This document shows, piece by piece, positions 729 through 18,982 of a stretch of DNA of 20,000 nucleotides. Position 1 is the first letter of the stretch; each line of letters starts with the position of its first letter. The notes beneath the pieces are model-generated. The model worked only from the letters and a program-made list of their open reading frames with translations. It ran no database searches and was not told the DNA's origin. A program made the position numbers and the translations under genes. This DNA is from an uncultured virus (IMG/VR IMGVR_UViG_3300031276_000162) (Duplodnaviria > Heunggongvirae > Uroviricota > Caudoviricetes). The stretch is from the IMG/VR virus record IMGVR_UViG_3300031276_000162; one strand, given 5' to 3'.

Positions 729-1454
729 GTGAACCTCATTCTCTGCGCCCACCACCAGATCGGCTGCCGCGTGCTGGAGTGGGTGTTGCGCGCCGGTTGC
801 GCCGACCGGTTGGCGGTATTCACGCACGTGAGCCGGGAGCACGAGGGCAACGTGCTGGAGTTAGCGCGTGCCCACGGTGTGACGGCCACGACGGCCAGCG
901 TCAACCGGGCGCCGCTGCCGTTCCGGCCGGACATCATCGCCAGCGTGTACTATCGCGGCATCATCAAGCCGCACGTCATCGAGGCGTGCGGGGGTCGGAT
1001 CTTCAATGCCCACCCGTCGCTGCTGCCCAACCATCGGGGCTGCTCGGCCGTGCCGTGGGCCATCATCGAGGGCGACGCGGTCACGGGCATGACTTACCAC
1101 TACATCGACGAGGGCATCGATACCGGCCGGGTGCTGGTGCAGGCCGCGGTGCAGATCGACCTGGACGAGACGCAGCTGTCGCTGTACGAGAAGTGCATGG
1201 CGGTGGGCGCGCGCTACTGGCCGGCCGCGTTCGAGCTGGTGCAGGCTGGTTTCCCAGGAGTGCCGCAGCTCGGCCGCCGGCAGAGCTACCATCGGCGCGG
1301 CTGTCCCTACGGCGGCGAGATCCAGCCGGGTTGGTCGCTCGATCAGGTGGAGCGCTTCATCCGTGCGATGCACTACCCGCCGCTGCCGGGAGCGCGATTT
1401 CGTGGTCGGCCGGTGGGTAGCGTGAAGGAGTACCGTGCGTTGCTGCCCGTCTAA
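729..1454 (+). CDS. N10-formyl-THF-dependent formyltransferase, probably NDP-amino-sugar N-formyltransferase (WbkC/WlaRD/ArnA-formyltransferase-like)
   Basis: GTG start. Motifs NAHPSLLPNHRG, PWAIIEGD..TGMTYH..DEGIDTG and C-terminal RFIRAMHYPPLPGA. At 241 aa it is too short for a full Fmt with its tRNA-binding domain, and it sits beside sugar-pathway genes. Confidence 0.85.
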   Translation: MNLILCAHHQIGCRVLEWVLRAGCADRLAVFTHVSREHEGNVLELARAHGVTATTASVNRAPLPFRPDIIASVYYRGIIKPHVIEACGGRIFNAHPSLLPNHRGCSAVPWAIIEGDAVTGMTYHYIDEGIDTGRVLVQAAVQIDLDETQLSLYEKCMAVGARYWPAAFELVQAGFPGVPQLGRRQSYHRRGCPYGGEIQPGWSLDQVERFIRAMHYPPLPGARFRGRPVGSVKEYRALLPV

Positions 1455-1543
1455 TCGTTCCTTGCCCTAATCCAAGACGTCGTCAGTCGGTACCTCAATG
1501 GGAAGCGGATCTCGGTTCACAGGACCGAACTCCTACCAGTCGT

Positions 1544-2752
1544 TCATGGTGAAGTCGCGCAGCAGCGAAAGCCGGTGGCGGGTTGGGGCAGGGAGCGCGC
1601 GGCGGAGGCGGGACTGTTGCAACGTAGGTTGCCGCTGGCCTGGGTGTTCCCGTAGCACCCTCCGCGGATCGGGCACTCATCGTTGGCTCCTCCCTCGATG
1701 GAGCACTCTCCCGTCCACTCCCACACATTGCCACTTAGGTCGAGCACACCCCTGTAGCTGGGTGCTGTGGCCTGGCAACTGGCCAAAGAGCCCACAGGCA
1801 GGGCGGTGTTGACGACGGGATCCGAGTTCCAATACTCGTATGAGTTGCACGCATCGGACACGTAGGTGCTGGAGGCGTAGGGGTAAATGTTCTGGCCGCC
1901 CGAGCTGCATGCGTTGTACCACTCGTCCTGTTCTGGATCGTTCAGGTCGACCGTTGTGGCTCCGCCGACTGCTCCGCATAGGTGCTTGCCCATGTCCTGA
2001 CAGTAGGCGTAGGCCGAGCACCAGTCGATGCAGGTGCGGGGGTGCGTGCCGCACTGGTCGCCGGCGCAGACCTTGGGGTGGGAAGTGCAGGCGGGGTCGG
2101 GGGCGAAGCTTGTCAGGTACGCACAGGCCGGCGGCATTGCGGGAGTCGGAGCGAGCGCGAGCCAACGGTCGTACTGGTCGCGGACGACCTCGGTCCGGTC
2201 GATCAGGTAGGAAACTCCGGCCGGGGTGGAGAGCGCGACCATGGCCGTGGAGCACATTCCGGAGCGGCACTGTTCTCCGAAAGCGCATTCGTCTTCGTCC
2301 TCCCAGGCGCCGCTTGCCGAGCAGAAGCGGGGCAGGCCGTTGCTGCATTTGCGCTCTCCTGGAATGCAGTCGTCTCCCCCGCCCCCAGCTCCTGCCCTGC
2401 CCCCCGTGGTCTGCGACTCTCCCCCACCGCCGAGTCCCGCTACACCTCCAGATGCCGGCTGACCGGCCGCGCCGGCTGATGCGCTGCTGGAGCCAGCCCC
2501 GCCGACCAGGTTGGAACCCCCTGCTGCCGCCGCCTGGCCGCCTTCAGGTGCCCCGGCGCTCCCAGCGCGCGCTACTACTGCCCCGCCCCCTCCATCTCCG
2601 CCAGACGTGGCGGGATGCGTCGCCTGGGCGCCTCCCATCCCGGCCCATCCCGCCGTGCCGGCAGAGAGGTCCCGTGGGTCGCCCCGCCGCGTGGAGCTGC
2701 CCGAGCATGCAGTGAGAGTGGAAAGCATTAGGAGCAGGGTGGCGGTTTTCAT
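1544..2752 (-). CDS. Lipoprotein with Gly/Ala-rich linker, Cys-rich repeat and C-terminal formylglycine-generating-enzyme (FGE/SUMF1, CLec-fold) domain
   Basis: Signal peptide with lipobox LTA-C and a GGAGG RBS. FGE motifs IDRTEV, CIDWCSAYAYC..GKHLC, EWYNAC, DLSGNVWEW, RGG.Y and GFRCC. Confidence 0.88.
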   Translation of the reverse strand: MKTATLLLMLSTLTACSGSSTRRGDPRDLSAGTAGWAGMGGAQATHPATSGGDGGGGAVVARAGSAGAPEGGQAAAAGGSNLVGGAGSSSASAGAAGQPASGGVAGLGGGGESQTTGGRAGAGGGGDDCIPGERKCSNGLPRFCSASGAWEDEDECAFGEQCRSGMCSTAMVALSTPAGVSYLIDRTEVVRDQYDRWLALAPTPAMPPACAYLTSFAPDPACTSHPKVCAGDQCGTHPRTCIDWCSAYAYCQDMGKHLCGAVGGATTVDLNDPEQDEWYNACSSGGQNIYPYASSTYVSDACNSYEYWNSDPVVNTALPVGSLASCQATAPSYRGVLDLSGNVWEWTGECSIEGGANDECPIRGGCYGNTQASGNLRCNSPASAARSLPQPATGFRCCATSP

Positions 2753-2807
2753 GATTGCCTCCGAATCGATCCTACGTTGCTGCTACCGGCGAGCTTCCCC
2801 TTGACCT

Positions 2808-3629
2808 TCAGATTTCTGCCAGCCGCCCCAACAACTCGTCCCAGTTCGTAGTGTAGAGGCACCCATGGGGCGCTTGTTGCCGTAGGAATGCGTCGACAAA
2901 GATCGGCTCGTGCCCACTCACGCACAGCGGTTTGCCCACCGCCGCGCTGAACACGAAGCCGCCTCCAATGCCGATGTGCACTGACGCCACCGCGTCCCGG
3001 ATGTAGGTGCAGTCCTGTCGCAGCTGAGCAAGTCTCATCTCGTGATCCGGACTGAAGGTGCCGATGGTCAGATCGGTCAGTTCAAGCGAGCGGCTTAGTT
3101 CTGAATAGATGGAGTAGATGCGCCCCGGTCCGTGTTCCCGGTACTCGCGGCTCGGCTCCATTTCCTGCTCGCCGAGCAGCACCAGTTGGTAGCGCTGGGC
3201 AAGCGACTGAAGGGCACGTAGCAGTTCGGGCCAGCGCGCATCGAACACCTTGCGGGGCATAAACCTCACCTTGGTGTTGAGCACCACGTAGGGGCGCTCC
3301 GTGTGTAGCGCCGGTCCAGCACAAAGCACGTTAGCTAGCCGTGGCCACTGCGGCCTGGCCCCGAAGTGGATGTACATGCACTCATCGGTGCAGTGTGTGG
3401 CTTGCAGTCCCGGCACTACGACGTAGGGGGGGCAGTCGAATATGAGCCGAGCGAAGCGGGTAGCAAAGTCGCGGTAGCGGGCACTCCGAAAGTGCAGAAT
3501 TTCGCGGGCGAAGCCCACCCGCACTTCACGACAGTGGGCCACCACTGGGTCGAGCTGCGCTCTGCCCAACACGAGATCCCCCAACCCGAGAGCCAGCCCT
3601 ATCTGGAAGCTTTCTGGTGCTCGATCCAT
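2808..3629 (-). CDS. Putative GT-B (GT9-like) glycosyltransferase, paralog family A copy 1
   Basis: N-terminal GLGD. Shares PYxxLxTKVR, LLGE, IYSIY, DLT, LRQDC and GIGG..A.G with three other ORFs in the window. Confidence 0.7.
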   Translation of the reverse strand: MDRAPESFQIGLALGLGDLVLGRAQLDPVVAHCREVRVGFAREILHFRSARYRDFATRFARLIFDCPPYVVVPGLQATHCTDECMYIHFGARPQWPRLANVLCAGPALHTERPYVVLNTKVRFMPRKVFDARWPELLRALQSLAQRYQLVLLGEQEMEPSREYREHGPGRIYSIYSELSRSLELTDLTIGTFSPDHEMRLAQLRQDCTYIRDAVASVHIGIGGGFVFSAAVGKPLCVSGHEPIFVDAFLRQQAPHGCLYTTNWDELLGRLAEI

Positions 3630-3647
3630 GCCGTCCCGCCCAGGTGG

Positions 3648-3677
3648 AGATTGCCACTACGCTGGGCTGCGCACCAA
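3648..3677 (-). promoter_or_regulatory. Putative promoter TTGGTG-N18-CAATCT (with TG extension) for the 3629 gene
   Basis: In the divergent 3630-3694 gap, 18 bp spacer, TGG immediately before the -10. Confidence 0.35.
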
Positions 3678-3686
3678 TGATAACAT
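3678..3686 (+). promoter_or_regulatory. Putative extended -10 (TGA-TAACAT) 8 nt before ATG 3695; possible leaderless transcript
   Basis: TGnTAnnnT match. No clear Shine-Dalgarno between it and the ATG. Confidence 0.4.
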
Positions 3687-3694
3687 AGGCGCCC

Positions 3695-4687
3695 ATGGTC
3701 ATCTATGTTGCTTTCCCCGAAGATCCGGATGCCTACCCCGAGCGGGAGAGCATCAACCCCAACGTCGTGGCGTGCCACTTCATCTACTACGCGCTCAAGC
3801 GCAAGTTCGGGGAGAAGGTGGAGTTTCTACACTGGAGTCTGCGGCCGGACTATCAGCCCGAGGACGTGGTGGTGGGTCTGCTGCCGGGCCAGAGCCTGAA
3901 CTACTGGCCGCGCCGGGTGGTGGTGAGCAACGATAACTTCGACGTGAACAAGTGGAAGCACGGGAAGTTCTCCAAGTACGGGATGAACTTTCAGACGGAT
4001 CACACGTTCGGCTACAACCATGTGCTGAAGGACTCATGGGCTTGCGTCTTCATGACCAACGACGTGGCCATCAAGAAGTGGGATGAGGACCACCCCGACG
4101 TGAAGGAGAAGAAGGATTGGCTGCTCGACAATGTGGGAAGCATGCGCTTGATGCAGCACCCATTGGACAAGGAGCGGCTGGGAGCGAAGTTTGATCCTAA
4201 CCGTCGCTACGACCACTTGCGTATGCTGATCTACCACGACGGCTGGCGCAAAAATGCCCAGCAGCTCATCGACCTGCTGGGGCGCATCGGGCTCAAGCAG
4301 AAGGTGAGCTACGACGTGACGGGATGGGTAGACAAGACCAACCCTGGCAAGATCGACGCCGTGCTCAAACACTACGCCTACCTCGCTCACGTCAGCGTGA
4401 GCGAGGGGTTCCCCTACATGGCCAATGAGTTTCTGTGTCAGGGACTGCTCCTGTACGGACACGAGGAGTGGTGGGACGGGTACGGTTACCAGGGATTGCG
4501 GTGGACCTACGACCCAGATCGTGAGGCCCAGAACGTCGCGTCGCTCAAACTGATTCTGGGTGACGCCTACAAGGAGCAGTATTACCAGATTCGCGACGAC
4601 GTATGGAGCCGGCACATGAACCGTACGGACAACACGTGGGAGGCGTTCAGCGCGGCCGTAGTGGAAGAGGTGGAGCGCCACCTATGA
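3695..4687 (+). CDS. Divergent GT4-like (GT-B retaining) glycosyltransferase
   Basis: RKNAQQLI resembles the GT4 RKN/G..LI motif. SVSEGFPYMANEFLCQG matches the GT4 EX7E motif (S.EGFP....EA...G). Confidence 0.7.
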   Translation: MVIYVAFPEDPDAYPERESINPNVVACHFIYYALKRKFGEKVEFLHWSLRPDYQPEDVVVGLLPGQSLNYWPRRVVVSNDNFDVNKWKHGKFSKYGMNFQTDHTFGYNHVLKDSWACVFMTNDVAIKKWDEDHPDVKEKKDWLLDNVGSMRLMQHPLDKERLGAKFDPNRRYDHLRMLIYHDGWRKNAQQLIDLLGRIGLKQKVSYDVTGWVDKTNPGKIDAVLKHYAYLAHVSVSEGFPYMANEFLCQGLLLYGHEEWWDGYGYQGLRWTYDPDREAQNVASLKLILGDAYKEQYYQIRDDVWSRHMNRTDNTWEAFSAAVVEEVERHL

Positions 4688-5589
4688 AGCTTCTGGTCAC
4701 CACCAGTCAGGGCGGTCTGCTGTACGACCCCGAAACGCGCCGCAAGACGCCGGTGGAGCGGGGTGCGGAGGGGAGCACGGACTGTTTTGGTGTGACCTGG
4801 ACGCGGCAGGGTCGGTTGTACATCGCCTGGCGCTTTCCGGCTCAGATCCTGGAGTATGATGAAAAGCTCGCGCCCACGGGTCGTCGCCTGATTTCGCCGC
4901 ATGGAGAGAGCTTCGACAAGCAAAAGCTCAACTGTGCGCCCCACCAGCTGCTGTGCATCGGCAACTTCATTCTGGTGGCTGATACGGGGTGGAACGAGGT
5001 GACCGTTTTCGATGCCGACACGTTGCAGTGCGTCAGTCGTTGGTGCCCGCACGTGGATACGCAGCCGGACGGGGCACGTTCGGAGTGTCGCCACTACAAC
5101 TCACTGTACTACGAGCCAGGTGTCCTTTGGACTGTAGCTCACATGCATACCCAGCAGGAGTCGCGCGTATGGTGCGTGAGCTACGACGAGGAGCGCGGTC
5201 AGGTGGGCGGTCTGCTGGCTACTGTCGACTGTGGTTGGGGGGCGCACAACATTTTTCGGCTGGGCGGCAAGCTGGCCATCTGTGATTCGATGCGCCACCG
5301 GGTGCGCTACATTGGGGGCGAGCAAACCACTATTTACCAGGAGCCATCCTCGGCGGTGCTACGGGGGGTATGTTTGCCTGAGCCGGAACAGCTTGCGGTG
5401 GTCGGTGGCTCGCAATTAACGGTGCAGAGGGAGTGCCGTTGGTCTGGCGGCGGCTGGTTGCTCATCTGGCGTAACCCGGGTATGCGGGGAGATCCGGAGA
5501 TGCACGAGCTAGGCCCGGGTCCTGTGCAGGATGTGCGCTGTCTGGACAGCCCGGACGCGGCTCACTCGCCGGTAGCACCTTTCTGGTGA
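4684..5589 (+). CDS. Probable beta-propeller protein (loosely TIGR03032/DUF4915-like) associated with the glycosylation locus
   Basis: True start is likely ATG 4684 (ATGA overlap with the GT4 stop), giving MKLLVTTSQGG. Repeated blade-like motifs FGVTW, APHQL, VADTG, HYNSL, AHNI, ICDS, LRGV and VGGS. Confidence 0.6.
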   Translation: MKLLVTTSQGGLLYDPETRRKTPVERGAEGSTDCFGVTWTRQGRLYIAWRFPAQILEYDEKLAPTGRRLISPHGESFDKQKLNCAPHQLLCIGNFILVADTGWNEVTVFDADTLQCVSRWCPHVDTQPDGARSECRHYNSLYYEPGVLWTVAHMHTQQESRVWCVSYDEERGQVGGLLATVDCGWGAHNIFRLGGKLAICDSMRHRVRYIGGEQTTIYQEPSSAVLRGVCLPEPEQLAVVGGSQLTVQRECRWSGGGWLLIWRNPGMRGDPEMHELGPGPVQDVRCLDSPDAAHSPVAPFW

Positions 5590-6254
5590 CCGGACTTATC
5601 GCATTGCCGGTAGCGCACGAGCCACTTGCCCAAACGCTCAGGTACCAGGCCAGCCCGCTCGGACATCACCTCCACTGAGCGGCCGAGGAAGAAGAAGCAG
5701 TGGTACTTGGAGTGGGCGTACTCGTACTCATAGCAGGGTGTGCGGTGGAGCATAGTACCGCCCGGTGCCAGGTAACCGAGCATCTCGACCAGCGCGGCAA
5801 CTGGGTCCTGAAAGTGCTCCAGCACGTTGTTCGACATGATCCCATCGAATTGCGCCCGGGCCGGTAGCTGGGCGCGGATGAGCGGTCGCGTCTGGGCCAG
5901 GAAGGGATCGTAGCCCGTTAGGCGCACCCCCTGCGTGCGCGCCTCGCTGCATGCTCTGGAGATGGCCCCCGAGCCCCAATTGAGATAGCTGTGCCCGATC
6001 TGTGGTGGAAATTGTGCCAGCACGGCCAGCTCATCGTCTGTGGCGTCGTAGCGAGCGGGGTGGCGAGCATGCAGTTGTCGGTACTCCTCCGCTAGCTCCT
6101 CTGCGTTGAGTGCTAGCATACGCTCAGTACCGAAAACCACGCCGCAGTCAGGGCACTCATATCGCACTAGCTCTTCCTGACTAAAGAAGCACCGGGAGCG
6201 CCGGATCTTCATAAAAGGCCCGCCACTCAGGCAGATGGGACAGGTGCTGGGCAT
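5562..6254 (-). CDS. Class I SAM-dependent methyltransferase (Methyltransf_23-like) with N-terminal Zn-ribbon
   Basis: Start taken at ATG 6254 (MPSTCPIC). CPIC...CPDC pair, motif I LNWGSG, GYDP, and FDGIMSNNVLEHFQDP...LAPGG. Its 3' end overlaps the convergent propeller gene by 28 bp. Confidence 0.82.
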   Translation of the reverse strand: MPSTCPICLSGGPFMKIRRSRCFFSQEELVRYECPDCGVVFGTERMLALNAEELAEEYRQLHARHPARYDATDDELAVLAQFPPQIGHSYLNWGSGAISRACSEARTQGVRLTGYDPFLAQTRPLIRAQLPARAQFDGIMSNNVLEHFQDPVAALVEMLGYLAPGGTMLHRTPCYEYEYAHSKYHCFFFLGRSVEVMSERAGLVPERLGKWLVRYRQCDKSGHQKGATGE

Positions 6255-6874
6255 GCAACCGCGCGGAGCGCAAATATGGCGTTGTTGTGGTCGGTACCGT
6301 GGAGCAGATAGTGCCGGTGGAGCATGTCGACTAAAGGCTGCAGGCCGACAATCCAGTGCTCGACGCACAGGATCTCCGGTAGGGCGATGGCCCGTTGGAT
6401 CATGGGCTGCAGCACTTGCAACTCGGTACCCTCTACGTCTAGCACCATGAGCTGTGGTTGAGGGAGGTCGAGCGCCTCAACGAGATATGGGTAGGTTCGG
6501 CACTGGACTTGGTATTGCTCGAAAGCGCAATCCTTGTGGCGCAGCGCGGCCAGGTGCTCAGTGGTGTGGCAGAGGGAACCTTGCCCGAAGTCACGCCCAT
6601 GGACCGGGTGGATTGCGTGGCGGAATGGGGCCACGCAGTTCTGATCCCAAAGGGCTAGCTGCAGGTTGAGCGCGTGAGGGCGGTTGGAGCAGAGCCGGCG
6701 GTACAGATCCGGCACGGGCTCCAGGTTGAGACCACGCCAGCCCTGGTCGCGCTCCAGGGGCAGGCCCACTGCATCGATGAGACCATCGAAGGCGCCCGCC
6801 TCGATGAAGAACCCTGGCCGAGCCGGGAGCAGGCCATTGCGCGCCAAGTACCTGCTAGGACCGTATAGAGGCAC
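6227..6874 (-). CDS. FkbM-family methyltransferase
   Basis: FFIEAGAFDG...LE...GWRGLNLEP....L..NRP, LDVEGTELQVL, ILCVEH. Confidence 0.88.
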   Translation of the reverse strand: MPLYGPSRYLARNGLLPARPGFFIEAGAFDGLIDAVGLPLERDQGWRGLNLEPVPDLYRRLCSNRPHALNLQLALWDQNCVAPFRHAIHPVHGRDFGQGSLCHTTEHLAALRHKDCAFEQYQVQCRTYPYLVEALDLPQPQLMVLDVEGTELQVLQPMIQRAIALPEILCVEHWIVGLQPLVDMLHRHYLLHGTDHNNAIFALRAVACPAPVPSA

Positions 6875-6877
6875 GGA

Positions 6878-7684
6878 CTACAGCTCCGAGAGAAGGTGGA
6901 GAAACTCGTCGGCGTTGCGCAGCACGTTGGCATGCGCCACTGGACCCTGGTTGTAGAGGTAGTTGAACACGGGATTGGGATCCGTGCGCCAGCCCAGCGT
7001 CTCGCCCACAGCAGTGATGACGCAGAACAGTCCTGACAGCCCGATGGTGATACACCGGTGGGCATCGCGCATGTAGGTGCAGTCCTGGCGTAGCTTGCTC
7101 AGGTTGGGCACAGTCAGCCCTAGCCGAGGCACGGTGAGATCCACTAGGGGCAGCTCGTCCTTCATGTCCTGGTATATGGAGTAGACGTTGTCGGCCCCGT
7201 GGACTGCATACTCCTCATTGTACTCGACCTCGCGCTCACCAGTGAGTACCAGGTCGTAGCGATCTGACAGAGTGCGGAGCGCCTGGTAGAAACGGGGACG
7301 CATCTCCTCATACTGTTTGCGGTGCAGATCTCGCACCTTCGTCATAAGCAGCAGGTAAGGCCGGTCGAGCGCGAGGGACTCCCCCGCACACAGCAAGTGT
7401 GGCAGCCATGGCTTCTGGGGCAGGATGTGGTCCTCCTGCCAGATCCCGTAGTTGTTCGTAGCCTTGGCCTGCGAGTGAGGAGCGATCACGTAGGGAGAGT
7501 CGAGAAACAGCACACGAGCGAGATCCAACACGAAGGGGCGATGCCCCTCAGTACGGCAGTGCAGAAACTCCCAACGGAAGCCGACCTCAATGCAATCAAA
7601 GCGATCTCGCACCGCATCCATCTGCGCGCGGTGATAGATCAGATTGCCGATACCGATGGGAATGCGTGCAGCGTAGGTGGTCAC
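6878..7684 (-). CDS. Putative GT9-like glycosyltransferase, family A copy 2
   Basis: GIGN, PYLLLMTKVR, LTGE, VYSIY, DLT, LRQDC. GTG start overlaps the stop of copy 3. Confidence 0.7.
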   Translation of the reverse strand: MTTYAARIPIGIGNLIYHRAQMDAVRDRFDCIEVGFRWEFLHCRTEGHRPFVLDLARVLFLDSPYVIAPHSQAKATNNYGIWQEDHILPQKPWLPHLLCAGESLALDRPYLLLMTKVRDLHRKQYEEMRPRFYQALRTLSDRYDLVLTGEREVEYNEEYAVHGADNVYSIYQDMKDELPLVDLTVPRLGLTVPNLSKLRQDCTYMRDAHRCITIGLSGLFCVITAVGETLGWRTDPNPVFNYLYNQGPVAHANVLRNADEFLHLLSEL

Positions 7685-8493
7685 GGGATGGCTTCGAGGC
7701 GCTCAATGAACTCCCGCCAGTTGCCAGTCACAAAAGCCTGGTCGGTGCGAGCAAGCGCGAGTACGGACGTGATGCATTCAAAACCCGAGCAACAGTGCAG
7801 TGCCAGGGTGTTGCCGGTGGCGATTGCCAAGGAGGTGTTGCCTCCAATGCCGAAGTTAATGTTCAGAACGGCGTGGTGCATAAGTGAGCAGTCGCGCCGC
7901 AGGCGAGACAGCCCGAAACCTGCGGTGTCATAGGCGCCGAAGGTGCGGTCCAGCACGGGTATCTGCTCGGCAATGACGTCCTCGTAGATGGAGTAGATGG
8001 CGTCCGGGCCCCAGTGGGTGTACTCGCCAATGCGGGCCAGTTTGCGCTCGCCGAGCAGCAGTATGGGGTAGCGCCCGCTCAGCTGGCGTAGCACCGAGAA
8101 GAACGGCTCCCGGATGAAATCGAAGGCCGGGCGACCCCAGAAGCGTACCTTGGTGTTGAGAGTGAGGTAGGGAGTATCGGGAATGGGAGCGTCGGGTATG
8201 CACAGCAGTTCAGAAAAGTAGGGAAGCTGCGGCGGCATCCCTTCCTGGTACAGGTCGCAGTAGGTCTTGTAGGGGAAGCGCCCATCGGCCACAAACTCAT
8301 AGGGGGGTGAAGTAAACAGCAATTGCGCAAACTGCGAGCCGAAGTCGCGGTAGCCGTGGTCACGCATCTCCAGCTGTTGCCAGTTAAGGGTGACACGGAC
8401 CCGCGCGAGTCTATCGCGTTGTGTGTCGAGGGTGGCCCGGGCGTAGAGTTGCTCGCCTAAAGCCAGGGGCAGGCAGATGCTGTAGTCAGCCAC
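7681..8493 (-). CDS. Putative GT9-like glycosyltransferase, family A copy 3
   Basis: ALGE, PYLTLNTKVR, LLGE, IYSIY, DRT, LRRDC, FGIGG..LA.ATG. Confidence 0.7.
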   Translation of the reverse strand: MADYSICLPLALGEQLYARATLDTQRDRLARVRVTLNWQQLEMRDHGYRDFGSQFAQLLFTSPPYEFVADGRFPYKTYCDLYQEGMPPQLPYFSELLCIPDAPIPDTPYLTLNTKVRFWGRPAFDFIREPFFSVLRQLSGRYPILLLGERKLARIGEYTHWGPDAIYSIYEDVIAEQIPVLDRTFGAYDTAGFGLSRLRRDCSLMHHAVLNINFGIGGNTSLAIATGNTLALHCCSGFECITSVLALARTDQAFVTGNWREFIERLEAIP

Positions 8494-8499
8494 GCGCCC

Positions 8500-9597
8500 T
8501 CATAGCGCCTCGCTCAGTGCCGAGGCCACCGCGTCCACGATCTGTGCGGTCACGTGCTCACCGGTGGGTAGGTTCATCCCGCGATCGGCAAGCCACCGGG
8601 AAGTGGAGGGCGGCGGCCTACCGGCTGCAGCCGCTTCATGAAAGGGAAGGGTTGACAGAGAAGGAAAGAAGGGTCGGCTATCAATTTCTGCTTCCCGCAG
8701 CGCAGCGACCGCCCGGGCGCGGTCCTCCGGCTCCTCGAACACCACACTGAACAACCAGCACACGTCATCGGCCCACTCCCGAGTGGCGGGCAGCTTCAGG
8801 GGCAAGGAAGCCAGCGCGCTGCGATACCAGGCATCGTTCTGGCGCCGCACGGAAAGGATCTGCTCTAGGCGCTCAGTCTGGGCGAGTCCGAAGGCCGCAC
8901 ACAGGGCGGACATGCGGTAGTTGTAACCAACGTCAGTGAACCAGTAGGTGCGCTGCGCATCGACGCAATGACCTCGGTACGAGCGCAATTTGGCTTCCAG
9001 ATCGGGGTCGCTGGTGCACACGATACCGCCTTCGCCGGTGGTGAGCAGCTTGTTGCCGTAGAAGCTGAAGGTGGAGGCGTCGCCGTAGGAGCCGACAGGG
9101 CGCTGGTTGAGATGCGCCCCATGCGCTTCCGAGGCATCCTCAATCACAAACAGCCCGTGGGCGTCGGCGATGGCGCAGATCTCGTGCATGTCAGCCGGCT
9201 GCCCGTATAGGTGCACCGGAATGATACCCACGGTGCGGGGCGTGATAAGTGAGCGGACGCTCTCCGGACTGATGCACCAGGTGTCGCGGAGCACATCGGC
9301 AAAAACAGGAGTGGCCCCGCAGTAGCTCACGGCGTTGGCGGTAGCAACGTAGGTAAGGTCGGGAACGATGACCTCGTTTCCTGGCCGACAGCCGAGGGCG
9401 ACCAGCGCGAGGTGCAAGGCTACGGTACCATTGCAGCAGGCGACGGCGTGCTGAGTTTGAATACGCTCAGCAAACGCCCGCTCGAAGCGTTGGACGAAAG
9501 GCCCAGCGCCGGACACGAATCCTGAGTCCAGCGCTTCCAGCACGTAGCGTCGCTCCAGGTCGGTGATGGACGCGCTGGCTACGGGGATCCCAATCAC
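8500..9597 (-). CDS. per: DegT/DnrJ/EryC1/StrS PLP aminotransferase, GDP-perosamine synthase-like
   Basis: NGTVALHLAL, VHLYGQPADM, IEDASEAHGA, SFYGNKLLTTGEGG (PLP lysine), GYNYRMS, GMNLP. Start set to GTG 9597 because the ORF-track extension overlaps the upstream gene. gmd is in the same locus. Confidence 0.9.
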   Translation of the reverse strand: MIGIPVASASITDLERRYVLEALDSGFVSGAGPFVQRFERAFAERIQTQHAVACCNGTVALHLALVALGCRPGNEVIVPDLTYVATANAVSYCGATPVFADVLRDTWCISPESVRSLITPRTVGIIPVHLYGQPADMHEICAIADAHGLFVIEDASEAHGAHLNQRPVGSYGDASTFSFYGNKLLTTGEGGIVCTSDPDLEAKLRSYRGHCVDAQRTYWFTDVGYNYRMSALCAAFGLAQTERLEQILSVRRQNDAWYRSALASLPLKLPATREWADDVCWLFSVVFEEPEDRARAVAALREAEIDSRPFFPSLSTLPFHEAAAAGRPPPSTSRWLADRGMNLPTGEHVTAQIVDAVASALSEAL

Positions 9598-9604
9598 GCA
9601 GGTC

Positions 9605-9634
9605 AGGATAGCGCTTACGGTGTGGGCACCACAA
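9605..9634 (-). promoter_or_regulatory. Putative internal promoter TTGTGG-N18-TATCCT, 7 nt before the per GTG (possibly leaderless)
   Basis: Occupies the only sizeable gap (9598-9653) in an otherwise tightly coupled minus-strand run. No Shine-Dalgarno before GTG 9597. Confidence 0.45.
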
Positions 9635-9653
9635 GTGACAAGTGCGCCGCTGG

Positions 9654-10460
9654 CTAGAGTTGGCGCAACCGCTGCAGAAACATCCCCGTATCGTGGGTGA
9701 GTACCACTCCGGGCTGGGTGGCGTCGCGGTAGAGGATGTCCAGGGTGGGGTGCACATCGCCACGCAGCCCGAGCACGCGCCCCACCGACAGGGCCAGGCA
9801 CAGGGCGCCGCCTAGCCCAATGGTCACGCAGCACTTCGCCGAGCGCATCACTTCGCAGTCTTGGCGTAGCTTCTGCAGGTCTGGAGGCGTCACTCCCAGC
9901 CGTTCAAAAGTGCGGTCCAGTACGGGCAGCTGCTGCAGGTCTGGATAGATGGAGTAGATGAGCTGTTCGCCGTGGTAGGCATACTCCTCGTTCGGCTCCA
10001 CGATGCGCTCGCCGAGCAGTACCAGGTCGTAGCGATCCCCGAGCCCTCGCAATGCCTCCAGGATAGGGCCCTTGGATGCGTGCCAGCGCTCTTGCGAAAA
10101 GTCGCGCACTTTGGTCTGCAACACCAGGTACGGGCGGGGCAGCGGTGGTGATTTGCCCGCACACAGCAGGGATGCAAGGCGCGGATGTTGGGCCGGGAAA
10201 TCGCAAGCTCGGAGCGTGTGGACGTCATGCTGCGGCAGGTTGGCTGCGTAGTCGATGACGTAGGGGTGCTGTCCATCAAACAGCAAACGGAAGAACTGAT
10301 CCACGAACGTGCGGTACTGCTCGGATCGGTAGCGCAGTAGTCCCCAGGAGGGACTGATCCGGATGCGTTCGTAGTGGTGCTTTTGGGCATCGAGTTGCGC
10401 TTTGATGAGGCACAGGTCGCCAATGCCGATCGAGAACGAGGAGTCGAAGGTGCAGCCCAT
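9654..10460 (-). CDS. Putative GT9-like glycosyltransferase, family A copy 4
   Basis: GIGD, PYLVLQTKVR, LLGE, IYSIY, DRT, LRQDC, IGLGG..LA..VG. Confidence 0.7.
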   Translation of the reverse strand: MGCTFDSSFSIGIGDLCLIKAQLDAQKHHYERIRISPSWGLLRYRSEQYRTFVDQFFRLLFDGQHPYVIDYAANLPQHDVHTLRACDFPAQHPRLASLLCAGKSPPLPRPYLVLQTKVRDFSQERWHASKGPILEALRGLGDRYDLVLLGERIVEPNEEYAYHGEQLIYSIYPDLQQLPVLDRTFERLGVTPPDLQKLRQDCEVMRSAKCCVTIGLGGALCLALSVGRVLGLRGDVHPTLDILYRDATQPGVVLTHDTGMFLQRLRQL

Positions 10461-10462
10461 GG

Positions 10463-10768
10463 TCAGTACGTCTTGTGCTGCTCCTGGAGAAATCCCGTAC
10501 CTACCAGGTCTTCATCGGTGAGCACCGCGCGAATCAGCTCGATGAGTCGCAGGTCAAGTGCGTGAATCATGCTGGAGCGCTGCACGTTCAGGTCGCACAC
10601 CTTCTTGAGACACTCATACAGCTCCAGCATCCCCTCGTCTCCGGAGTACTTATGCTGGAACTCGTGAAACTGCATGCGCCGGATGGCATAGAACAACTCT
10701 TGATTGTGCCACATCTTCAGGTCGACGGTGAGCAGCTTGTCGACGGTCTGACCAACGGTATCAGTCAT
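10463..10768 (-). CDS. Small helical DUF4254-like protein (101 aa)
   Basis: Start ATG 10768 behind GGAG. TVGQTVDKL.TVDLKMWHNQE...IRR and DLNVQRS.MI..LD resemble DUF4254-type motifs as I recall them. Confidence 0.6.
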   Translation of the reverse strand: MTDTVGQTVDKLLTVDLKMWHNQELFYAIRRMQFHEFQHKYSGDEGMLELYECLKKVCDLNVQRSSMIHALDLRLIELIRAVLTDEDLVGTGFLQEQHKTY

Positions 10769-10772
10769 GCTT

Positions 10773-11387
10773 TCACTCCAGCTTTCTGGCGGGCACGCCC
10801 ACGTACACACCGGGCTCCGCCAAGTCCTTTACCACGGCAGCGCCGACTCCGACCAGGACGTCGTCACCGATAAACACGTTGTCGCGCGTGGACACTCCTG
10901 CTCCCAACATCACCCTGTGGCCGAGCCAGTTGCGCCCAGAAACGTTGACCCCGTAGGCGGTGGTAAAAAAGTCGCCAGCATGCAGGTCATGTCCCAAGTA
11001 GGTGCCAACGTTGATGAGCGACCAGCTGCCCAGCAGTATGTTGCAAGTGAGGTTGCAGTGCGCCGAGATGATGGAGCCGTGCCCAACCACTATGGAAGAG
11101 GGGTGTAGTAAGGTGGCGCCCGGATCGATGAGGACGGGAAACTCCGTATCGGGATTGCGGGTGGTGAGCAGGCGAGCCAGCCGACATCGCTCGGCTGGGC
11201 TGCCCAGTGCGATAGCCGCACTGTGCAGCTGGGGGTTGAAGAAGCTCTCGTCGCGCACCGCGGTGTCGAGTACGGACTCAGCAGGCGCGGGCTCGATGAA
11301 TGCCTCCACCTGGAGGCGCAGCCGCTGTGCGATGAGAAGCACCTCGCGCCCGCACCCGCCGGCTCCGAAAATGCACAAGGGCTTCAT
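10773..11387 (-). CDS. Sugar N/O-acetyltransferase, PerB/PglD/NeuD family (left-handed beta-helix)
   Basis: Start ATG 11387 (ATGA overlap). IFGAGGCGREV, AIALGSP..R, hexapeptide repeats, catalytic GHD, VYVGVPARKL. Confidence 0.88.
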   Translation of the reverse strand: MKPLCIFGAGGCGREVLLIAQRLRLQVEAFIEPAPAESVLDTAVRDESFFNPQLHSAAIALGSPAERCRLARLLTTRNPDTEFPVLIDPGATLLHPSSIVVGHGSIISAHCNLTCNILLGSWSLINVGTYLGHDLHAGDFFTTAYGVNVSGRNWLGHRVMLGAGVSTRDNVFIGDDVLVGVGAAVVKDLAEPGVYVGVPARKLE

Positions 11388-12292
11388 GTTTGGCTGAGTT
11401 CCTTTTCCACTTGGGCCACGAAGGGTTTGGGACCTACGTCGCGGCATTGAGTGACGCTACAGCTGAGTGGTATGCGGCCTTCCATTTCGCTTCCCAGCCA
11501 GTGGGGACGGGCCACGCTGGAGAAGGTGAGAAACCGCGCGGGACGCTGCAGCAAGTTGGGCTGGATCATGGAGAAAGTGTAGGCTCCGCTGAAGCGCCCT
11601 ACGATGAGATGGCAGCGGGTGCTGAGGTAGCCGCACTCATTGAGATCGATGACGCCCTCCCGAATGCCAATCAGGTCGCGGGAGAACACGACGTTGGTCG
11701 GCAATCTCACCGATGGCTCGTGCTCGCGGTTGGTGTAGATGAAGAGGACGTCTGGGTGCTTGCGTCCCAGTTCGGAGAGCGGTGGCAGCATGGGAAACAG
11801 CGGTGCCTGCCCGGCGGTGGCGCGGCCGTTGGCCACCAGCACGCGGCGCACACCAGGCAGCATCTCCAGGGCCTGCTGCGCCGGTGCCACCCGGAAAAAC
11901 GAAAAGTCGATGTCGGGCAAGAAATGCGGTGGCGGAGCCAGCTCGCCGAGGGAGAATCCCAGTCGACTGGTGGCCACGTGCTCAAACATCCGATAGAGGG
12001 TATCGAATAGCGCGGCCTGACCGTCGCGCACGAAGCGCCCCTCGCCGGCGGCGTACCAGGTATTCACGAAAAGCGAGTCGTCTTCGATGAAGTCGGATTG
12101 TGCCGCGTGCACGTATCGCTCCTGAAAATCAGGAGGCAGCGCAACTTCCAGCCCACAGTCGGCTAGTATCCGGTTTCCGGCGTTGTAGTAGTAGCAAGGG
12201 ACCGAGACGTGCTGGGCGATGGATCGTACGAACGAACGAGACACGTGAAGATCTCCCAAGCGCGCGTGGGAGAAGAATATGATGCGCTTCAC
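11384..12292 (-). CDS. Putative GT-B (GT9-like) glycosyltransferase, family B copy 1
   Basis: LGDLHVSRSFV, FVNTWYAAG, GQA, DLNECGYLST.C.LIVGRFSGAYT. The C-terminal motif parallels GT9 A.L.IG.DSG..H. Confidence 0.65.
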   Translation of the reverse strand: MKRIIFFSHARLGDLHVSRSFVRSIAQHVSVPCYYYNAGNRILADCGLEVALPPDFQERYVHAAQSDFIEDDSLFVNTWYAAGEGRFVRDGQAALFDTLYRMFEHVATSRLGFSLGELAPPPHFLPDIDFSFFRVAPAQQALEMLPGVRRVLVANGRATAGQAPLFPMLPPLSELGRKHPDVLFIYTNREHEPSVRLPTNVVFSRDLIGIREGVIDLNECGYLSTRCHLIVGRFSGAYTFSMIQPNLLQRPARFLTFSSVARPHWLGSEMEGRIPLSCSVTQCRDVGPKPFVAQVEKELSQT

Positions 12293-13194
12293 GGAAGCAA
12301 CCCTAGCAACAGTTTGACGGCTTCATTGCGGCTGGTAGTGCGCGATTGAAGCACGCTGCACCGCAGCGCCGAGCGCTCACGATACCAGGGGCCAATTGCA
12401 AGCGGGTAGGGGAGCGTCGAAAACTCCAAAAAGCGAGTGGAGCGCTGCACCAGGTTCTCATGACACAGCGCGTAGGTGTAGCTGCTGGAGTTGCGCCCGG
12501 CGATGACTTGGCAGTAGGTCGAGATGAAGGCGTTTTCATTCAGGTCGATGCCCTCACGCACTCCGTGTACATCCCGGGTCCAAACGCAATTACCCGGGAG
12601 TGCCGCCCTCACTGGCGCAGCCGCCCAGGTGTAGTAGAAGGTAACGTTGGGACGCTGGGACGCTGCCGCGCGCAGTACCGGGATAAGAGGAAAGTTGCTT
12701 GCCTGTCCCGAAAGGCAGTCCACTGTGTCTAAAAACACGCGGCTGCCTTGGGCGTGCGAGTTCATGTAGTCGGACACCTGGTTAGTGGCGGGGAACGCTT
12801 TCCAATTGATGCGCGGCAGAAGTGCCGTCGGGGTGCCCATCTGCTCCATGCTCAAGTCTAGCCGTTGGCAGGCTTCCTGAAACAGACGGTACAGGCAATC
12901 AAAGGTTACTAGATCATCTGCGTGGGGAGATCGGAACCGGTGTTTGCCGGCGGCGTACCAGGTGTTGATGAATAGGCTCTCATTTTTCAGAAATGTGGTG
13001 GTGTAGGACCACTGCCGATTCTCTATTTGAGAACGTGGGCGGTGCTGCACCTGGATGTCGCAGAGCAGTGCCGGGTCTTCTGCGTGGTAGTAGCAGCAAG
13101 GCACCTGAGACAGCTCCGCGATCCTCTTCACGAAACTACGCGACACATGCAGATCACCTTTACGCCCCCAGTTGTGAAAGCAAATCTCCTTCAT
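12289..13194 (-). CDS. Putative GT-B (GT9-like) glycosyltransferase, family B copy 2
   Basis: Start ATG 13194 (ATGA overlap). KGDLHVSRSFV, FINTWYAAG, SGQA, DLNENAFIST.C.VIAGRNSSSYT. Tandem paralog of 11384-12292. Confidence 0.65.
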   Translation of the reverse strand: MKEICFHNWGRKGDLHVSRSFVKRIAELSQVPCCYYHAEDPALLCDIQVQHRPRSQIENRQWSYTTTFLKNESLFINTWYAAGKHRFRSPHADDLVTFDCLYRLFQEACQRLDLSMEQMGTPTALLPRINWKAFPATNQVSDYMNSHAQGSRVFLDTVDCLSGQASNFPLIPVLRAAASQRPNVTFYYTWAAAPVRAALPGNCVWTRDVHGVREGIDLNENAFISTYCQVIAGRNSSSYTYALCHENLVQRSTRFLEFSTLPYPLAIGPWYRERSALRCSVLQSRTTSRNEAVKLLLGLLP

Positions 13195-13856
13195 GCGCTG
13201 CCGAGCCTTTCGTGCCCGGGCCAACCTTGCACTTGGCGTTGACGAAACACTTCCTGGTCGCGCTCCCAGTGCCGGTCGTTGGCTTGCTGGTAGTCCGTCT
13301 TCGCGCGCCCGCCCCGCATCCAGTGGTCATGGTACTGGGTCAGGTCGGCGCGTTGCCAGAACACGCCGAGCAGCTGAGCGACGTGGAACAGCTCCTCGTC
13401 GCCATAGAATGCGTTGTACTGCGGACAGAAGGGGCCCCGGCCCCGGTAGGACGTCTGCAGCCACCCGCGCCCGAGCCATGGCGAGCCACAGATGCGGTCG
13501 GTGCCGTCGAGGTCATCGCCGATGGGCTGCATGACCCCGAATCCGTCCGGCCAGCGCGCGAAGAACTCGCGGGCGACGGTCTGCGGGTCCGCGTTGGGGT
13601 CCGGGTACATGTCGTCGCCGCCGGCGACCACAATGTCGCGTCTGCCGGGCAATTTGCGGCAGAGCAGGTTGGTGGCGCGCCAGTAGCCTGGGTAGGTGTC
13701 CACGTGCATGCAGAAGTCGGCCTCGACGTCCGGCACGCCCGGGTCGAGCAGGACGGCGGTGCGGTAGCCGCGCGCGCGCCACTGGGCGAGGCAGTCGCGG
13801 GCGCGCTGCGGGTCAGCAGACGGAATGGCGTACCAGATACGGTAGTGCTCAGACAT
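13191..13856 (-). CDS. Putative GT-A (GT2-like) glycosyltransferase, family C copy 1 (221 aa)
   Basis: WYAIPSA, IVVAGGDDMYP (DxD-like), GD.EL, H.HW. Confidence 0.7.
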   Translation of the reverse strand: MSEHYRIWYAIPSADPQRARDCLAQWRARGYRTAVLLDPGVPDVEADFCMHVDTYPGYWRATNLLCRKLPGRRDIVVAGGDDMYPDPNADPQTVAREFFARWPDGFGVMQPIGDDLDGTDRICGSPWLGRGWLQTSYRGRGPFCPQYNAFYGDEELFHVAQLLGVFWQRADLTQYHDHWMRGGRAKTDYQQANDRHWERDQEVFRQRQVQGWPGHERLGSA

Positions 13857-14514
13857 GTGCGGCTCGTTCGTGTCCCGGGAAGTCGGCGGCTAGGCGGGCC
13901 TCGAAGATCTTCTGGTCGGGCTGCCAGTACAGCTGCTGGTTGCGCTTCTGGTAATCCTTGCGCTGTCGGGTGCGCCACCAGTGTTCGTGGCGCTGCACCA
14001 GATCCGGCCGGGGCCAGAACACGCCGAGCCGCTCGGCCACGAGCTTCAGCTCCTGGTCCCCGAACCACACCATGTAGTCCTGGCAGAGGGGCCCGCTCCC
14101 CCGGTATGCCTCGCGCACCCAGGCGCTGCCCAGCCACGGGCTGCCGGCCACCAGGTCCGTGCCCCAGAGGTCGTCGCCGGTGGGCTGCATCACGCCGAAC
14201 CCGTCGGGGAAGCGCTCGAAGAACTGCTCCGCGATTTGCTGGGCGTCCAGGCGGCCATCCGGGAACATGTCGTCGCCGCCGGTCACCACGATGTCCGCTT
14301 CCCCGATCTGCTGGCACAAGGCGCAGACCGAGCGGTAGTAGCCGGGCCAGGGAGAGGTGTGCACGACTAGATCAGCTTCTTCCGGCCGCCTCTGCCCTTC
14401 CTCACATAGCAGGGCGACCCGGTAGCCTCGCCCGCGCCAGGCGGCAAAGCACGACTGGGCGCTGTCCGGTTTGGCTGAGGGGATGGCGTACCAGACGTTG
14501 TAGGGGGGAGGCAT
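13849..14514 (-). CDS. Putative GT-A (GT2-like) glycosyltransferase, family C copy 2 (221 aa)
   Basis: WYAIPSA, IVVTGGDDMFP, PDGFGVMQP.GDDL.GTD, GSPWLG, GDQEL, HEHW. Tandem paralog of 13191-13856. Confidence 0.7.
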   Translation of the reverse strand: MPPPYNVWYAIPSAKPDSAQSCFAAWRGRGYRVALLCEEGQRRPEEADLVVHTSPWPGYYRSVCALCQQIGEADIVVTGGDDMFPDGRLDAQQIAEQFFERFPDGFGVMQPTGDDLWGTDLVAGSPWLGSAWVREAYRGSGPLCQDYMVWFGDQELKLVAERLGVFWPRPDLVQRHEHWWRTRQRKDYQKRNQQLYWQPDQKIFEARLAADFPGHERAAHV

Positions 14515-15170
14515 GGCTTCTGTTTGACCGATGGAGTCCTGGGGGGCACGTGGTCAGCGGCGGGGGGCGGGGCGAGGTGCAGGAAGATGTCGTCGTTGTC
14601 CGGGGGCGCTCCAATCGGCGTCCGCTTGTCGCTTCGGTAGCGGTACCAGTACATACACCGGGGGAGCATGGCGTGCGTTTCGAGCAGGGGTAGCAGTCCC
14701 GACGAGTATTCGTGATCCTCGCCGTGGTTGAGGGCGGGGAAGCCGACCTGGAGGCCCAGCTCGCGCGCCACCGGGTTCAGGTGGTTGGGGCACCGGTAGT
14801 GCACGCCCTCGTAGGTGAACCAGTCGTTGTAGTCGAGCGAGTGAACGAAACGCGCGCGGCCGTGTCCGTCGGTGGTCACGACGCCCCAGTAGCCGAGGCA
14901 GTCGATGTCCGGATGCTCCGCCAACTCGTGCATGATGTCGGCCACGTAGTAGCTGGGGACCCAGTCGTCGTCGTCCACGAAGGCGATGTACTCGCCCTTG
15001 GCGCGGTGCAGGAGGGTGGTCCGCTTCTGCCCGATGGAGGTGTTGCCGCCATCCACCTCCGTGAGGATCTCCACCGGCAGATCACCGATCTGCTCCTGCA
15101 AATGCTTCACGAGTGGATTGAGCGCGTGGACGCGCTGCTCGACCGAACAGATGAGGATGCTGAGTTTCAT
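14367..15170 (-). CDS. GT2-family glycosyltransferase (compact type); C-terminal tail questionable
   Basis: Start ATG 15170 (ATGA overlap with gmd). [47 protein letters not shown]. The last about 50 aa overlap the next gene by 148 bp. Confidence 0.85.
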
Positions 15171-16177
15171 GACGCGGCGTTCCCGGCGGCGTCGGCGGCT
15201 TCTCGTTGGGCGAGCTTGAGGTCGTGGTCGACCATCAATCTTACCAGTTGAGCGAAGGAGGTGCGTGGCTGCCAACCCAGCACCCGGCGTGCCTTGGCCG
15301 CGTCGCCACAGAGGTGGTGGACCTCGGCGGGGCGCTCGTAGCGAGCGTCGTGCTGGACGTAGTAGCGGTAGTCGAGCCCCACGTGACCGAAGGCATGACC
15401 GCAGAACTCCCGCACGCTGTGGCTTTCGCCGGTGGCGATGACGAAGTCGTCCGGCTCGGCAGTCTGGAGCATCATCCACATGGCCTCGACATAGTCCTGG
15501 GCGTGTCCCCAGTCCCGCTTGGCGTCGAGATTGCCGAGGTAGAGCGCGTCTTGCAGGCCGTGCTTGATACGGGCTGCGGACCTGGTGATCTTGCGGGTGA
15601 CGAAGGTTTCTAATCTGCGCTCAGATTCGTGATTATGCAGGATCCCATTCGCGGCGAACATCCCGTAGGCTGCCCGGTAGGTCTTGGTGATGTGGTAGGC
15701 GTAGACCTTGGCAACGGCGTAGGGGCTGCAGGGCTGGAACACGGTGCTCTCGCTCTGGGGCGCAGGCGCATTGCCGAACATCTCGCTGGAGGATGCCTGG
15801 TAGAAGCGGGCGTTCGGCGCGACCTGGCGCATGGCTTCGAGCAACCGTACGGCGCCGAGCGCCACGGTCTCGCCGGTGTACTCGGGCACGTCGAAGCTCG
15901 TGCGCACATGACTCTGGGCGCCGAGGTTGTAGATCTCGTCGGGCTTGGACTGCTCCAGCGCGGAGCGCAGCGATGAGCTGTCGGTCAGATCCCCGTAGAT
16001 GAGCCGCAGCCGCGGGTCATCCGTGTGCGGGTCCTGGTACAGGTGGTCGATGCGGCCCGTCGTGAACGTGCTGGAGCGCCGGATGAGCCCCCAGACCTCA
16101 TAGCCCTTGGCGAGGAGCAGCTCGGCCAGGTAGGAGCCGTCCTGGCCGGTGATGCCGGTGATCAGGGCGCGGGGCAT
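15167..16177 (-). CDS. gmd: GDP-mannose 4,6-dehydratase
   Basis: [89 protein letters not shown] before ATG 16177. Confidence 0.97.
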
Positions 16178-16218
16178 GGCGGGCGACTCTCCGGGACCGC
16201 TGGGTGCTCCATGGCGCG

Positions 16219-16248
16219 AAGGTACCACCGGTGCGCGGCGGTGCGCAA
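16219..16248 (-). promoter_or_regulatory. Putative promoter TTGCGC-N18-TACCTT (TG-extended) heading the gmd operon
   Basis: In the 16178-16252 gap, correct orientation, 18 bp spacer. Confidence 0.45.
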
Positions 16249-16252
16249 GAAC

Positions 16253-16947: not shown

Positions 16948-16956
16948 GCGCCCACC

Positions 16957-18452: not shown

Positions 18453-18505
18453 TGGTTGCTCCTTTGAATGTTCTACGCCACGGCGGCGACGTTGCTTCCC
18501 TCAAC

Positions 18506-18978: not shown

Positions 18979-18982
18979 GGCG

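Follow-up and report, generated by a model that had tools for sequence, protein, structure and literature searches.

A viral glycosylation island predicted to make N-acyl-perosamine glycans, with virion proteins as the favoured target

Does a virus that carries its own island of sugar genes decorate its particles, its DNA or its host? The question is raised by the uncultured virus IMGVR_UViG_3300031276_000162 (IMG/VR), of which we analysed one stretch of 20,000 nucleotides (the window) that holds a dense glycosylation island. A preliminary description of this DNA had offered three candidate targets, namely virion proteins, modified DNA bases and a host receptor; our analysis favours the first, disfavours DNA and leaves the host surface as the main rival. 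On balance, we read the island as the virus's own cytoplasmic pathway for coating virion proteins with a complex N-acyl-perosamine glycan, and the window as belonging to a large bacterial virus of high GC content. The virion as target is suggested by related genes that lie beside capsid genes in other phages. More tentatively, the virus may belong to an undescribed, possibly tailless lineage of large bacterial viruses and may build a methylated N-formyl/N-acetyl-perosamine particle coat by means of two unnamed GT9-like families.

The GC content of the 20-kb window is 58–72%. Logan contigs from one salt-marsh run, possibly the run of its origin, cover it with 0 differences at an even depth of 10–13, so its sequence is not an assembly artefact; three further runs contain short exact pieces of it at low depth, and there is no RNA run among the listed runs that match it. 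Repeats within the window reflect paralogy or chance, and no tRNAs were found in it. A minus-strand run of abutting open reading frames (ORFs) spans positions 16177 to 5562 in the order gmd, a GT2 glycosyltransferase (GT) gene (g19), two genes each of the families that we call famC and famB, an acetyltransferase gene, a DUF4254-like gene, a famA gene, an aminotransferase gene, two more famA genes, an FkbM gene and a methyltransferase gene. To the left of this run lie g06 and g05 on the plus strand, a fourth famA gene and an FGE-domain lipoprotein-like gene on the minus strand, and a formyltransferase gene on the plus strand. The genes are as follows:

729–1454, plus: g02, sugar N-formyltransferase of the GDP-perosamine formyltransferase type (PF00551; best match PDB 5vys)
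1544–2752, minus: g03, FGE-sulfatase-domain protein with a lipoprotein-type N terminus and a Gly/Ala/Ser linker (PF03781; lipobox read from the sequence)
2808–3629, minus: g04, famA GT9-like GT-B glycosyltransferase (35–38% identity with g09, g10 and g12)
3695–4687, plus: g05, viral GT4-like glycosyltransferase (Atlas 0.97 to viral GT1/GT4 clusters)
4684–5589, plus: g06, orphan, beta-propeller-like by eye (no Pfam, PHROG, NCBIfam or GenBank phage match)
5562–6212, minus: g07, S-adenosylmethionine methyltransferase, Methyltransf_23 (Pfam)
6227–6874, minus: g08, FkbM-family methyltransferase (PF05050, TIGR01444)
6878–7684, minus: g09, famA GT9-like GT (by paralogy)
7681–8493, minus: g10, famA GT9-like GT (by paralogy)
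8500–9600 (start about 9600, not fixed), minus: g11, GDP-perosamine synthase-like pyridoxal-phosphate aminotransferase, DegT family (PF01041)
9654–10460, minus: g12, famA GT9-like GT, modelled (AlphaFold2 fold, paralogy)
10463–10768, minus: g13, DUF4254-like small protein (weak PF14063 match, E = 0.0016, below cut-off)
10773–11387, minus: g14, 4-amino-sugar N-acetyltransferase of the VioB/PglB/PerB (NeuD/PglB) type (TIGR03570, E = 4e-36, below cut-off)
11384–12292, minus: g15, famB GT9-like GT-B glycosyltransferase, modelled (AlphaFold2 fold)
12289–13194, minus: g16, famB paralogue (39% identity with g15)
13191–13856, minus: g17, famC putative GT-A-like protein (conserved residues, fusion, context)
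13849–14514, minus: g18, famC paralogue (52% identity with g17)
14367–15170, minus: g19, actinobacteriophage-type GT2, tail rich in Pro/Ser/Thr (PF00535, phrog_14775)
15167–16177, minus: g20, GDP-mannose 4,6-dehydratase, Gmd (TIGR01472, 482 bits against a cut-off of 415)

Profile matches recovered every sugar enzyme that had been named in the preliminary description (Gmd, a Per-like aminotransferase, acetyl- and formyltransferases and two methyltransferases). Its count of about ten GT-like ORFs was also correct; g19 alone has a Pfam match, and the other nine are assigned here. It had overlooked g13, which belongs to a conserved core, and the FGE-domain protein g03 with its lipoprotein-type signal.

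The donor sugar can be predicted from these enzymes. The best PDB match of g11 is the perosamine synthetase 3bn1 (E = 8e-92; next non-perosamine entry, 3e-75), that of g02 is the GDP-perosamine formyltransferase 5vys (1e-38 versus 2e-22 for ArnA), and g14 matches VioB (3e-21) and PerB (1e-10). A Pfam scan of the window detected no Fcl, ManB or ManC. The island thus combines Gmd, a Per-type aminotransferase and an N-acyltransferase without Fcl, which by homology is the gene set of a GDP-perosamine pathway, and is predicted to turn host GDP-mannose into GDP-N-formyl- and GDP-N-acetyl-perosamine. In this scheme, well supported by homology, Gmd would convert host-supplied GDP-mannose into the 4-keto-6-deoxy sugar, g11 would aminate this intermediate to GDP-perosamine, and g02 or g14 would add an N-formyl or N-acetyl group. 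The N-acyl-perosamine chemistry proposed earlier thus stands at the level of homology, with a perosamine synthase and a GDP-perosamine formyltransferase as best PDB matches. The methyltransferases g07 and g08 may then O-methylate or cap the glycan.

Nine of the ten GT-like proteins lack a Pfam, NCBIfam or PHROG match. All-against-all BLAST sorted eight of these nine into three paralogue sets (famA, four members; famB, two; famC, two). The famA paralogues are mutually 34–42% identical, and the family has 278 representatives at E values up to 0.001. The AlphaFold2 model of g12 (famA; pLDDT 96.5) is a compact GT-B fold whose matches are effectively tied: TibC (Z = 12.6), the GT9 structure 3tov (12.2), WaaF (11.7) and WaaC (11.4), with root mean square deviations of 3.4–4.0. 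TibC is a cytoplasmic protein heptosyltransferase. The model of g15 (famB; pLDDT 94.8), searched with Foldseek only, also found GT9 3tov as its best match (TM score 0.55). Both models therefore share the GT-B fold of GT9 and TibC; in sequence, the Pfam scan gave no PF01075 (GT9) match for either family, and a PDB profile search detected no similarity to TibC or GT9. A profile comparison gave no alignment between famA and famB, so the two are separate families. Their island neighbours point to GDP-sugars, not ADP-heptose, as likely donors. The nearest Atlas cluster of g12 has 2300 members, 96% of them viral, and g05 lies, by Atlas features, at 0.97 to viral GT1/GT4 clusters that are mostly viral; close homologues of g05 adjoin famB in two loci (L049, L015). 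We also observed tandem famA proteins (P0002–P0009, P0011 and P0013) with two or three famA domains in 600–1030 residues, several with an unrelated N-terminal domain; the four that were scanned have no Pfam match. Such tandem domains would fit sequential steps of one pathway.

The famB genes belong to a module of very large phages. Among 50,697 GenBank phage records, famA matched only LR756504.1 (636 kb), and famB matched only this record and LR756501.1/LR756503.1 (735 kb). In LR756504.1, with a GC content of 26%, famB, acetyltransferase, DUF4254-like, aminotransferase and famA genes are consecutive, and g13 is 50% identical to its partner there. In IMG/VR, 163 stretches encode famB, many of them in contigs of 200–480 kb; the best 80 of these gave 78 loci, to which the two GenBank loci were added. 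In these 80 loci, 5–41 kb long and counted raw without a null control, an aminotransferase gene occurs in 52, a Gmd-like short-chain dehydrogenase/reductase gene in 44 (42 at E below 1e-60), a DUF4254-like gene in 29, famA in 16, the acetyltransferase in 15 and FkbM in 14. After merging at 90% famB identity, and counting recognised genes only, 11 of 63 groups keep the order famB–acetyltransferase–DUF4254 and five keep the full order famB–acetyltransferase–DUF4254–famA–aminotransferase. Queries with a single protein or with alignment A1 confirmed no famA locus in IMG/VR, and a metagenome scan gave two short, distant loci; the context of famA is thus drawn only from famB loci and LR756504.1. In three related loci out of nine from smaller phages, famB lies one or two genes upstream of terminase–portal, and in a fourth within 6 kb of it. 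Thg1 and RNA ligase genes repeatedly flank the module in jumbo phages (L004, L007 and L012). In a 459-kb phage (L005, positions 15725–19710), the island is extended with GT29-like, DHDPS-like, DAHP/KdsA-like and cytidylyltransferase genes, which suggests a viral ulosonic-acid pathway.

The right-hand part of the run has relatives of a different kind. In famC, residues D81-D82, D153 and H176/H178 are near-invariant (at least 99% of 103 sequences); we take this pattern to resemble that of inverting GT-A enzymes, and one protein (P0268) is a natural fusion of famC (57%) to a g19-like GT2 (48%). Motifs, neighbours and this fusion point to famC as a GT-A-like glycosyltransferase; GenBank phages gave no match to it, and a PDB profile search gave none that was significant. 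We located relatives at 12 loci, of which seven were annotated (four near-duplicates and one 4.7-kb contig were left out). In all seven, which include four PHROG terminase types, famC is inside the head operon and on the same strand, 0.9–2.4 kb behind the capsid gene in five and between the portal and capsid genes in two. These loci often contain gmd or another epimerase gene, GT29-like or GT2 genes and methyltransferase genes, and in one (L086) famC, a g19-type GT2 and gmd stand together behind the capsid gene. The GT2 g19 has matches in 63 GenBank phage records, all actinobacteriophages, including LittleE gp15 (E = 2e-27), which directly follows the major capsid gene, and Che8 gp108 (E = 5e-15). 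The Pro/Ser/Thr-rich C-terminal tail of g19 (14367–14600) has a lower GC content at third codon positions and runs about 150 bases into the start of g18.

Taken together, the island joins two portable viral modules into a mosaic. One, gmd–GT2–famC, is a head-operon module seen here in phage contigs of 18–68 kb; the other, famB–acetyltransferase–DUF4254–famA–aminotransferase, is a jumbo-phage module. On the virion-coating reading, the GT-A enzymes (the two famC proteins and the Che8 gp108-like g19) would attach the first sugars to particle proteins, and the six GT9/TibC-like enzymes and the GT4-like g05 would extend the glycan chain.

Several observations weigh against virion proteins as the target. 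Both the glycan and its acceptor are predictions from genes, perosamine is a typical O-antigen sugar, and TibC and the lipopolysaccharide (LPS) heptosyltransferases are tied in Z score for famA. The window contains no terminase, capsid or other virus hallmark gene. In jumbo phages the famB/famA module has tRNA-repair and replication genes, not structural ones, as its neighbours, and five of the nine smaller famB loci have no head genes within 10 kb. Comparison of famC with Che8 gp110/Corndog gp38 gave an hhalign probability of 0.14% (two-sequence template), and comparison with the gp109 type gave 4%. Finally, IMG/VR favours hallmark-bearing contigs, which inflates nearness to head genes; this bias nevertheless leaves unexplained why in five of seven loci famC follows the capsid gene at a distance of no more than 2.4 kb.

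The strongest alternative, possible but in our view rather unlikely, is that the virus remodels its host's surface by placing N-acyl-perosamine on host lipid-linked intermediates (LPS core, O-antigen, capsule or surface lipoproteins); it would then use the host flippase and ligase, blocking superinfection or grazing. The fold that famA and famB share with the LPS-core heptosyltransferases WaaC/WaaF agrees with this, PF14063 also matches in Bacteroides thetaiotaomicron, and a secreted-type lipoprotein gene, g03, lies inside the island. For cyanophage clusters of the P-SSM2 type, host-surface modification is the printed reading (PMC7824862, PMC12801897), itself put forward as a proposal in these papers. 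The membrane machinery bears on both sides. No multi-pass proteins had been noticed in the preliminary description, and a hydropathy scan agrees, with at most two hydrophobic segments per real ORF (the maximum in an extended DegT frame) compared with 6–11 for the Escherichia coli controls Wzx, WzxC and Wzy. No flippase, polymerase/ligase or Wzm gene was found in the window. The same search was made in 22 carrier records, among the longest famB records, of which nine are at least 90% complete. Wzx (PF01943) was found in none (control, 13 of 14 genomes), nor was the priming transferase Bac_transf (PF02397; control, 9/14; the search in carriers did not extend to the WecA type, PF00953), and Wzy/WaaL (PF04932) gave nothing above cut-off and one match below it, with a stop (control, 9/14). 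ABC2 (PF01061) occurred in one carrier, a giant-virus bin (control, 14/14). Terminase was recognised in 8 of the 22 and a Gp23 capsid in 4, so not all are demonstrably tailed phages.

Flippase, priming and ligase machinery is missing from the 22 carriers, in line with the membrane-machinery-free island of the preliminary description, and this excludes a self-contained O-antigen pathway in them; use of host carriers is compatible with the same result. The lipid-carrier-independent pathway proposed in the preliminary description is therefore one possibility only, because soluble viral GTs could act on host undecaprenol or lipid A intermediates. Indeed, cytoplasmic O-antigen GTs are soluble anyway, and the missing membrane genes are compatible with host-surface remodelling. 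That none of the carriers brings a flippase, ligase or priming transferase speaks against remodelling all the same, and remodelling gives no reason why famC and the g19-type GT2 should sit in the head operons of unrelated phages.

Hypermodification of viral DNA bases with a complex sugar is a very unlikely role for the island. Glycosylation of 5-hydroxymethylcytosine by GT-A and GT-B enzymes is known from phages, but DNA-sugar pathways cluster with 5mYOX or ThyS (bioRxiv 2023.12.21.572611), and Pfam, PHROG and NCBIfam scans found no base-modifying gene in the window. TET/JBP was matched in 2 of 47 carrier or related records, once above cut-off in a giant-virus bin (control, 0/14, which leaves the sensitivity unproven), and thymidylate synthase in 4 of 22 carriers, always as a canonical full-length match. 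T4 beta-glucosyltransferase is absent among the fold matches listed for famA and famB.

Least probable of all is that the genes form an ordinary bacterial locus for O-antigen, capsule or S-layer, chromosomal or island-borne, with its membrane genes elsewhere: the GC content would suit one, Gmd, Per and the formyl- and acetyltransferases are standard O-antigen enzymes, the closest relatives of the flanking AAA gene lack a recognised terminase or capsid, and famB occurs on four contigs of metagenome-assembled genomes (MAGs) in GTDB, but these are 4 short contigs in 185,579 genomes versus 163 IMG/VR stretches (searched with different patterns), the Atlas clusters of g12 and g05 are mostly viral, and the flanks are orphans plus a gene triad shared with viral genomes that end in direct terminal repeats (DTRs). 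The GTDB search used one famB pattern, which matches both window paralogues; it was with this pattern that we looked for the LPS-locus synteny in bacterial chromosomes named earlier as the case that would overturn a phage origin, and none was seen. The four contigs (L096–L099; 2.5–19 kb, all from MAGs) look like mis-binned viral fragments: they are short, and L097 has a GC content of 20%. On L099, phage-type genes for RNase H and exonuclease speak against a bacterial locus.

The window is very probably viral, as had been proposed: relatives of both the island genes and the flanking triad are found in viral contigs. The flank comprises two features:

16495–18123, minus: g22 and a MoxR-type AAA ATPase, shared with viral contigs
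19336–20000 (cut by the window end), plus: DUF2201_N metallopeptidase/vWA partner of the AAA protein (Pfam)

The closest viral relatives of this AAA protein are 42–49% identical and lie on contigs of 38–179 kb, two of them with DTRs. These contigs share the AAA–g22–DUF2201 triad, in which AAA and g22 are lineage markers of high-GC viral contigs of 125–179 kb; a scan with the AAA protein as single query found no loci. One of them, G025, is a complete, DTR-ended IMG/VR genome of 179 kb and 64% GC with endolysin, integrase, DnaB, RecET and tail-fibre-like genes. Between the tail-fibre-like gene and the triad it carries a GT/methyltransferase block of its own, different from that of the window. 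No terminase or capsid was recognised in the 60 large ORFs of G025, and terminase, portal and capsid Pfam profiles matched nothing in the five AAA-linked relatives (G021–G025), which also gave no famC match. A32-type ATPase and PRD1 capsid profiles had no match there; the PRD1 control likewise matched nothing.

How does the island compare with known systems? Virion proteins of the mycobacteriophages Che8, Corndog and Myrna are glycosylated, and Che8 gp110 and Corndog gp38 are essential (PMC12363180); mycobacteriophage virion glycosylation is credited to Freeman et al. 2023, as cited in PMC12363180 and PMC12619734, and phage virion glycosylation has been raised for moraphages (PMC12619734). The island resembles this system in its soluble phage GTs, in the homology of g19 to Che8 gp108 and LittleE gp15, and in its head-operon relatives. 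Unlike it, the window has no detectable homologue of Che8 gp110/Corndog gp38 (two-sequence template), encodes ten GTs to the three of Che8, would itself supply a rare amino sugar and relies on families of GT9-like GT-B enzymes, so that membership in the Che8 system appears partial.

Perosamine is the C-2 epimer of viosamine. Giant viruses (PBCV-1 with its GMD, Mimivirus with viosamine) likewise encode sugar synthesis from host GDP-mannose and carry an N-acylated, O-methylated 4-amino-4,6-dideoxy sugar (PMC9614988); the window differs in its bacterial-virus context and in perosamine, its GTs may be unrelated to those of giant viruses, and its glycan is a prediction from genes. The cyanophage 'LPS' clusters of P-SSM2, S-SCSM1 and S-SCSM2R (PMC7824862, PMC12801897) are similarly large, variable epimerase/GT clusters in big genomes, whereas famA and famB match one and three uncultured huge-phage records, respectively, among the GenBank records searched. 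Because these matches are uncultured huge phages only, famA and famB do not, at this sensitivity, appear to be the families of cultured cyanophages.

Bacterial N-formyl/N-acetyl-perosamine O-antigen loci are of the gmd–per–wbkC or perB type. They share the nucleotide-sugar enzymes of the island, whereas the window lacks wzm/wzt, wzx/wzy and a priming transferase and draws its GTs from viral families. The protein heptosyltransferases TibC/BAHT and GT9 share the GT-B fold (famA, Z = 11–13; famB, TM score 0.55) but no sequence similarity; famA and famB are much shorter, at 270–300 residues, and the window has no ADP-heptose pathway. The island would accordingly be classed outside both the O-antigen locus type and GT9 as defined by sequence. 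By analogy, it most likely works like mycobacteriophage virion glycosylation joined to sugar synthesis in the manner of giant viruses (PMC9614988).

Phage virion glycosylation is already in print for actinobacteriophages, and the perosamine/GT9-like module and famC are apparently new: we found no description of the famB–acetyltransferase–DUF4254–famA–perosamine module or of famC in the literature, subscription papers and supplements being outside its scope. The huge-phage and megaphage papers examined make no mention of perosamine or GT9, and DUF4254 papers, judged by title, contain nothing related. In the literature examined, glycosylation of phage particles has been measured in actinobacteriophages only, and sugar-gene clusters of large phages are usually classed as host-LPS modifiers. 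The island connects both, as one of its modules has head-operon relatives and the other is a conserved jumbo-phage perosamine pathway. It also yields three so far unannotated families of viral GTs, for which there are clear candidate donors, along with a DUF4254-like partner, and the choice between virion and host surface becomes testable with purified enzymes. If a particle coat is indeed made, it would be a bacterial-virus counterpart of the glycan coats of Mimivirus and chloroviruses, and many uncultured jumbo phages would be glycan-coated, as the families are shared with phages of 200–735 kb.

Other genes of the window stand apart from this pathway. An ORF at 15–680 (g01) encodes a very acidic orphan; neither it nor g06 has a match in any library or locus tried. 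The FGE-domain protein g03 has a lipobox-like LTAC and a linker with 38 Gly, 24 Ala and 12 Ser in 113 residues; proteins of its type presumably resemble myxobacterial lipoproteins, and it may be a hint to the host or a glycan acceptor. No homologue was found in any fetched locus, and g03 is probably a passenger. A MoxR–vWA–metallopeptidase pair has been described in jumbo phages (PMC7824862), and in the 636-kb phage (L001, 22754–24913) a DUF2201/vWA gene lies about 2 kb from the glycan module, as in the window. In G025, a Mg-chelatase-like AAA domain is part of a 1091-residue protein. In the window (16495–20000), three small ORFs separate the minus-strand AAA and g22 genes from the plus-strand DUF2201 gene; the relatives keep the triad in a single row, and the layout in the window is a local rearrangement.

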